From UHGV virus genome UHGV-0162320: a stretch of DNA of 10,748 nucleotides; one strand, written 5' to 3'. The position numbers and the translations under genes were made by a program. The stretch comes from a virus. Below, one piece after another: positions 10,730 to 10,748 of the stretch (position 1 is its first letter; each line of letters opens with the position of its first letter). Below the pieces are notes generated by a model. That model was not told the origin of the DNA. It saw nothing but the letters and a program-made list of their open reading frames with translations, and searched no databases.

Positions 10730-10748
10730 CTGTCTCTTATACACATCT
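10730..10748. other. Tn5/Nextera mosaic-end adapter (non-biological)
   Basis: Exact 19-mer CTGTCTCTTATACACATCT at the very end of the window. Confidence 0.85.

Follow-up and report, generated by a model that had tools for sequence, protein, structure and literature searches.

The terminal 19 bases of a viral contig are very probably leftover Nextera adapter interrupting a satellite capsid-fusion gene

The DNA analyzed here, which we call the window, is the whole 10,748-nt stretch of the UHGV virus genome UHGV-0162320. At its 3' end the window breaks off within a gene for a fusion of a ClpP-like prohead protease with a major capsid protein, and the last bases of the reading frame do not belong to that gene. 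The features at this end of the window are as follows.

9402..10729, + strand: native 5' part of the ClpP-like prohead protease/major capsid fusion gene, 442 full codons plus 2 bases (identity to BH100N L001, Pfam)
10721..10729, + strand: last 9 native bases, GTTAACTAC, adjoining the mosaic end (ME); putative gap-filled Tn5 target site
10728..10748, + strand: seven adapter-affected terminal codons (translation compared with the reference)
10730..10748, + strand: Tn5 ME 19-mer, synthetic and non-native (exact match, oligo identity, divergence from the reference, IMG/VR signature)

The RefSeq counterpart of the open reading frame that starts at 9402 is WP_001082952.1, a protein of 637 aa. A Pfam search detected a complete CLP_protease domain (PF00574) at residues 31-175 (8.7e-36). 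The Phage_capsid_4 domain (PF25209), which is complete in the 637-aa reference, was covered in the window at profile positions 7-96 of 262. The product is thus a protease/capsid fusion, with an N-terminal Clp protease domain and a C-terminal phage capsid domain. The 449-codon reading frame of the window agreed fully with WP_001082952.1 up to and including residue 443. The codon of that residue is itself a hybrid, in which the native AC is completed by a C of the adapter to give ACC (Thr443), synonymous with the native ACA. The codons that follow, TGT CTC TTA TAC ACA TCT, are encoded by the adapter and translate to CLLYTS, where the reference has IPMAMG... The first-pass annotation had proposed that the last residues of this reading frame are artefactual, and the comparison with WP_001082952.1 confirmed this. 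Further, the partial product of 449 aa ending in CLLYTS was absent from a collection of 15 billion proteins.

We compared window 9700-10748 with 5,426 complete E. coli genomes. At least 80% of this region was covered in 195 genomes, the best of which showed 100% identity over window 9700-10729 (query positions 1-1030). Among these 195 genomes, no alignment reached into the last 19 nt. At the reference locus, L001 of strain BH100N, ...CAGTTAACTAC is followed by AATCCCCATGGCGATGGGACG, where the window has CTGTCTCTTATACACATCT instead, and the reference sequence after 10729 runs on as AATCCCCATGGCG / AATCCCCATGGCGATGGG / AATCCCCATGG. When the window was aligned with BH100N without gaps, there were 0 mismatches from 8833 to 10729, and then 4 of the 19 positions matched. 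The exact stop of the 100% identity, together with the 4/19 matches beyond it, places the breakpoint between authentic and foreign sequence at exactly 10729|10730. E. coli chromosomes that are up to 100% identical to the window through 10729 continue from there with native sequence for the 194 residues missing from the window reading frame, in agreement with the earlier suggestion that the truncation is technical. The 34-mer of genome and adapter that spans the boundary was absent from IMG/VR and JGI metagenome contigs.

The last 19 bases (10730-10748, + strand) are exactly CTGTCTCTTATACACATCT. An oligo named 'ME reverse complement' has been published for Nextera (Adey et al., PMC3046479), and CTGTCTCTTATACACATCT was letter-for-letter identical to it. 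When both strands of the window were searched with up to 3 mismatches allowed, this was the single match. The 19-mer was matched in 0 of 200 dinucleotide-preserving shuffles of the window, and the chance expectation of an exact 19-mer in 2 x 10.7 kb is approximately 8e-8 (about 1e-7). These values, and the drop in identity to the 195 genomes from 100% to noise (4/19) at 10730, speak against a native variant of the capsid gene that contains these 19 nt, which we regard as vanishingly improbable. The 19-mer faces outward at the contig end, in the order insert, ME and end, as in read-through. Thus, the identity as a Nextera/Tn5 mosaic end, proposed in the first-pass annotation, was supported by both the exact match to the published oligo and the outward position.

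The wild-type ends of Tn5 (OE and IE) have been replaced in vitro by a hyperactive mosaic end, and in Nextera kits free synthetic ME adaptors are joined to the target DNA (Picelli et al., 2014, PMC4248319). The 19-mer bears a general resemblance to the ends of IS50, as would be the case if a natural Tn5/IS50 insertion end lay in the capsid gene. We used plasmid pO86A1, in which the Tn5 kanamycin gene aph(3')-IIa lies just downstream, as the natural IS50 comparator. The natural OE in pO86A1 is CTGACTCTTATACACAAGT, with 3 mismatches to the 19-mer of the window, and the natural IE is CTGTCTCTTGATCAGATCT, with 4 mismatches, whereas the window carries the exact engineered hybrid. On these mismatches, a natural Tn5 insertion can be taken as excluded, and we consider it extremely unlikely. 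Sources of the 19-mer are restricted to synthetic DNA, namely the adapter of a library, a transposon of the EZ-Tn5 type or a vector that bears ME.

The exact ME adapter is common among public viral contigs, and an exact scan of the IMG/VR viral contigs for the 19-mer returned at least 120 stretches with a match (loci L011-L130). Among the matches listed, 121 of 123 copies lay within 67 nt of a contig end, and all of these terminal copies pointed outward (121/121; 0 inward). The bases following ME in the listed matches were CCGAGCCCACGAGA in 59 copies and GACGCTGCCGACGA in 35, and the remaining followed copies carried shortened prefixes of the two Nextera arms. ME was flush with the contig end, like that of this window, in 4 of the 121 terminal copies listed. 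The end of the window conforms to the usual pattern of untrimmed Nextera read-through. One dataset, 3300045988, contributed 50 of 80 listed IMG/VR stretches with ME. The two internal copies among the listed matches (L021, 2168-2186; L033, 3701-3719) have an arm beside ME and other sequence across it, and we read them as adapter-mediated chimeric joins. These internal joins suggest that chimeras, too, probably arise from adapters that remain in reads.

An engineered ME-flanked transposon (EZ-Tn5/mini-Tn5) inserted in the capsid gene, derived from a laboratory mutant or a Tn-seq library, would also end in exactly this 19-mer, in the same orientation to the genomic DNA (mechanism in PMC4248319). 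The contig would then break at the transposon end, and anything beyond ME base 19, the last base of the contig, would lie outside it. The direct abutment of ME on genomic DNA is common to the adapter and the engineered transposon and does not discriminate between them. However, a single-copy insertion gives no assembly reason to stop at ME base 19, and the cargo of the transposon would follow. In addition, 121 of the 123 copies in the public contigs (IMG/VR matches listed) are terminal and are plain Nextera adapter, and there are other signs of poor assembly in the contig. We therefore consider an engineered transposon very unlikely.

No other piece of Nextera, TruSeq, P5 or P7 adapter was found elsewhere in the window. 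Two isolated 11-mer coincidences with adapter sequence, at 1061 and 9663, were at chance level, and around both of them the window agrees with reference genomes at 100%. The 5' terminus was free of adapter and is for this reason an ordinary contig break. At that end, window 1-357 is cut from a minus-strand gene of the DUF2800/PDDEXK family that belongs to prophage A (L002 CDS 5054-6355).

We conclude with high confidence that the terminal 19 bases are a leftover Nextera (Tn5 tagmentation) adapter at the contig end and not biology. Every Nextera insert is flanked by the 19-bp mosaic end, and a read that outruns its insert passes from the genome into CTGTCTCTTATACACATCT, which is followed by either of two arms. 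If such reads were left untrimmed or were partly trimmed, words linking genome and adapter would enter the assembly graph, and the contig may have taken the dead-end adapter branch and not the true genomic continuation. That the dead-end branch was followed suggests that the genome beyond 10729 was covered by few or no reads. The contig ends at ME base 19, and the arm, CCGAGCCCACGAGAC or GACGCTGCCGACGA, would lie beyond it. The stop at this base may reflect the fork into the two arms (CCGAGCCC... and GACGCTGC...), or a trimmer may have removed the arm only. Seen directly were the identity of the 19-mer, its outward position at the contig end, the breakpoint at an exact base and the recurrence of the signature in other public contigs; what happened to the reads, and why the contig halts at base 19, is inferred.

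Tagmentation creates a 9-bp target duplication (PMC4248319). On this basis, the last nine native bases, GTTAACTAC (10721-10729), would be the Tn5 target site at which tagmentation cut off this library fragment, with its 9-bp gap subsequently filled in. The target-site preference of Tn5 is weak. The fit of GTTAACTAC to it, with G first and C last, is loose, and as evidence it was too weak to be used.

When the whole window was compared with the 5,426 complete E. coli genomes, none covered 80% of it. The window was composed of three overlapping pieces, each of which matched a different locus of BH100N.

Window 1-6935: 0 mismatches to BH100N prophage A at 2.83 Mb (VapE, Q, holin)
Window 6898-8867: 0 mismatches to BH100N mEp460-like lambdoid prophage B at 5.07 Mb (lysozyme, lysis protein, DUF6979, cos)
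Window 8833-10729: 0 mismatches to BH100N satellite C at 1.03 Mb, between cspD and clpS

The match coordinates and identities in strains BH100 and F11 were the same as those in BH100N, and the source loci lie 1.8-2.2 Mb apart in the closed genomes. Junction 1 falls inside a 38-bp block of exact identity (6898-6935) in the holin gene, and the bases that discriminate between the parents are 6891 and 6897 on one side and 6936 and 6951 on the other. Junction 2 falls inside a 35-bp block of exact identity (8833-8867) on cosN, with discriminating bases at 8827, 8828 and 8832 and at 8868, 8876 and 8878.

Neither junction was spanned exactly in the complete E. coli genomes, where the best match was 98.0% for junction 1 and the best full-length match was 94.7% for junction 2. 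Further, the 81-mer of junction 1 was absent from GTDB genome contigs and IMG/VR, and the 66-mer of junction 2 was absent from IMG/VR and JGI metagenomes. The parental forms of junction 2 were found in 43 and 13 contigs of IMG/VR, indicating that this search had power. All 25 long contigs inspected that carry the VapE of the window continued in the order of prophage A (lysozyme, Terminase_2, large terminase, portal). The ORF at 8562-8912 had no record as a called gene, and the junction-spanning ORF was absent from the 15-billion-protein collection. The ORFs at junction 1 were tried as exact-match probes and set aside. The holin (6697-7056) is that of locus A at the protein level and the lysozyme (7060-7536) is that of locus B, and since each is identical to one parent, neither protein discriminates.

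The interrupted gene belongs to a PICI satellite of the EcCICFT073-like type. In BH100N, the satellite (L001 5034-15166) lies between cspD and clpS. Its genes code for an integrase, Icd-like protein, primase and SSB, for a DUF1441 protein and for the ClpP-protease/major-capsid fusion at full length, and the annotation of this interval lists neither a large terminase nor a portal gene. The satellite is reported to be packaged in phage-sized capsids, yet it keeps its own protease/capsid fusion. A 74-bp cos-like element at window 8811-8884 is common to the lambdoid prophage and the satellite, and in the satellite it occurs twice, flanking the capsid gene (L001 11112-11185 and 13646-13719). When the termini of phage lambda were aligned, lambda nucleotide 1 corresponded to window 8842, and a cosN-like 12-mer, GGGCGGGAGCGT, was located at 8842-8853, where lambda has GGGCGGCGACCT (alignment of the cosQ/cosN junction). 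This alignment places the cosN-like 12-mer inside the second crossover block. Just downstream of the first satellite cos copy, window 8885-9044 is approximately 95% identical to the cos-DUF1441 stretch of other E. coli prophages (H98-H109), in which the DUF1441 gene is described as small-terminase-like. On the basis of this identity, the cosB-side region of the satellite looks borrowed from another phage lineage.

The joined pieces place lysis genes, cos and the capsid gene in succession, without a terminase or portal gene, and this order is no coherent phage layout. The unsupported junctions, the incoherent layout and the untrimmed adapter make chimeric assembly the likelier origin. We conclude that short repeats probably led to a chimeric assembly of this contig, and for at least junction 2 we hold chimeric assembly to be distinctly likely. 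The crossover blocks of 38 bp and 35 bp plausibly point to a de Bruijn assembly with a small k (about 31-33). A rare real recombinant or a cos-joined phage-PICI molecule is a less likely alternative to misassembly. Such a hybrid would have the right arm of a lambdoid phage joined to the EcCICFT073-like satellite at the shared cosN (8842-8853), either because identical cohesive ends had annealed and been ligated after co-injection or because recombination had occurred at cos. With either route, homologous recombination or the joining of cohesive ends, the switch would fall within this one 35-bp block of identity, and we consider a real hybrid at this site unlikely.

The composition of the contig also bears on the third synthetic source of the 19-mer, an insert/vector junction of an ME-bearing cloning vector, such as that of a METa-type functional metagenomic library. 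The vector pZE21-ME carries AGATGTGTATAAGAGACAG/CTGTCTCTTATACACATCT at its cloning site (PMC8269240), and in real clones of this kind ME indeed follows the insert. However, a 10.7-kb insert derived from three distant loci would be unexpected, and vector sequence was absent at both ends of the window. We consider a vector junction highly improbable, at a lower level than the engineered transposon, and even then the 19-mer would be an artefact of synthetic origin, with no change to the practical outcome.

The terminal ME is an ordinary technical artefact and is neither a biological feature nor novel, and the value of the finding is that of a data-quality flag. Trimming of the contig at 10729 is called for, and the 3' terminus of the capsid-fusion frame should be taken neither as a natural truncation nor as a variant C-terminus. 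Further, the untrimmed adapter is a warning on the remainder of the contig. The order of lysis genes, cos and capsid gene comes from the joins at 6898-6935 and 8833-8867, which are unsupported by other assemblies. Unless reads confirm it, the gene order of the contig should not be used for biological inferences such as a phage devoid of terminase and portal genes or a novel satellite architecture.

Compared with known systems, the satellite locus of BH100N resembles cos PICIs of the EcCICFT073 type in its integrase, primase, DUF1441 gene and two cos-like elements. PICIs of this type possess cos1 and cos2, and their cosQ and cosN resemble those of helper phages (PMC6739421); the two cos-like copies of the satellite match this cos1/cos2 arrangement. 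In contrast to an EcCICFT073-type PICI, the window holds just approximately 1.9 kb of the satellite (8833-10729), and the listed features make the satellite a putative member of this type. The natural ends of Tn5/IS50 are likewise 19-bp transposase-binding ends, are the source of ME and share 15-16 of 19 positions with the terminal 19-mer. The natural OE differs from the synthetic hybrid of the window at positions 4, 17 and 18, and IE differs from it at 4 positions. The closest likeness is to Nextera read-through contamination (the VecScreen/FCS-adaptor class), with which the window shares the exact, outward and terminal ME and the divergence from native sequence at its first base. Most other terminal IMG/VR copies among the matches listed extend 20-30 nt into the arm, whereas the window ends flush at base 19. 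There is no difference of substance between the terminus of this window and known Nextera read-through contamination.
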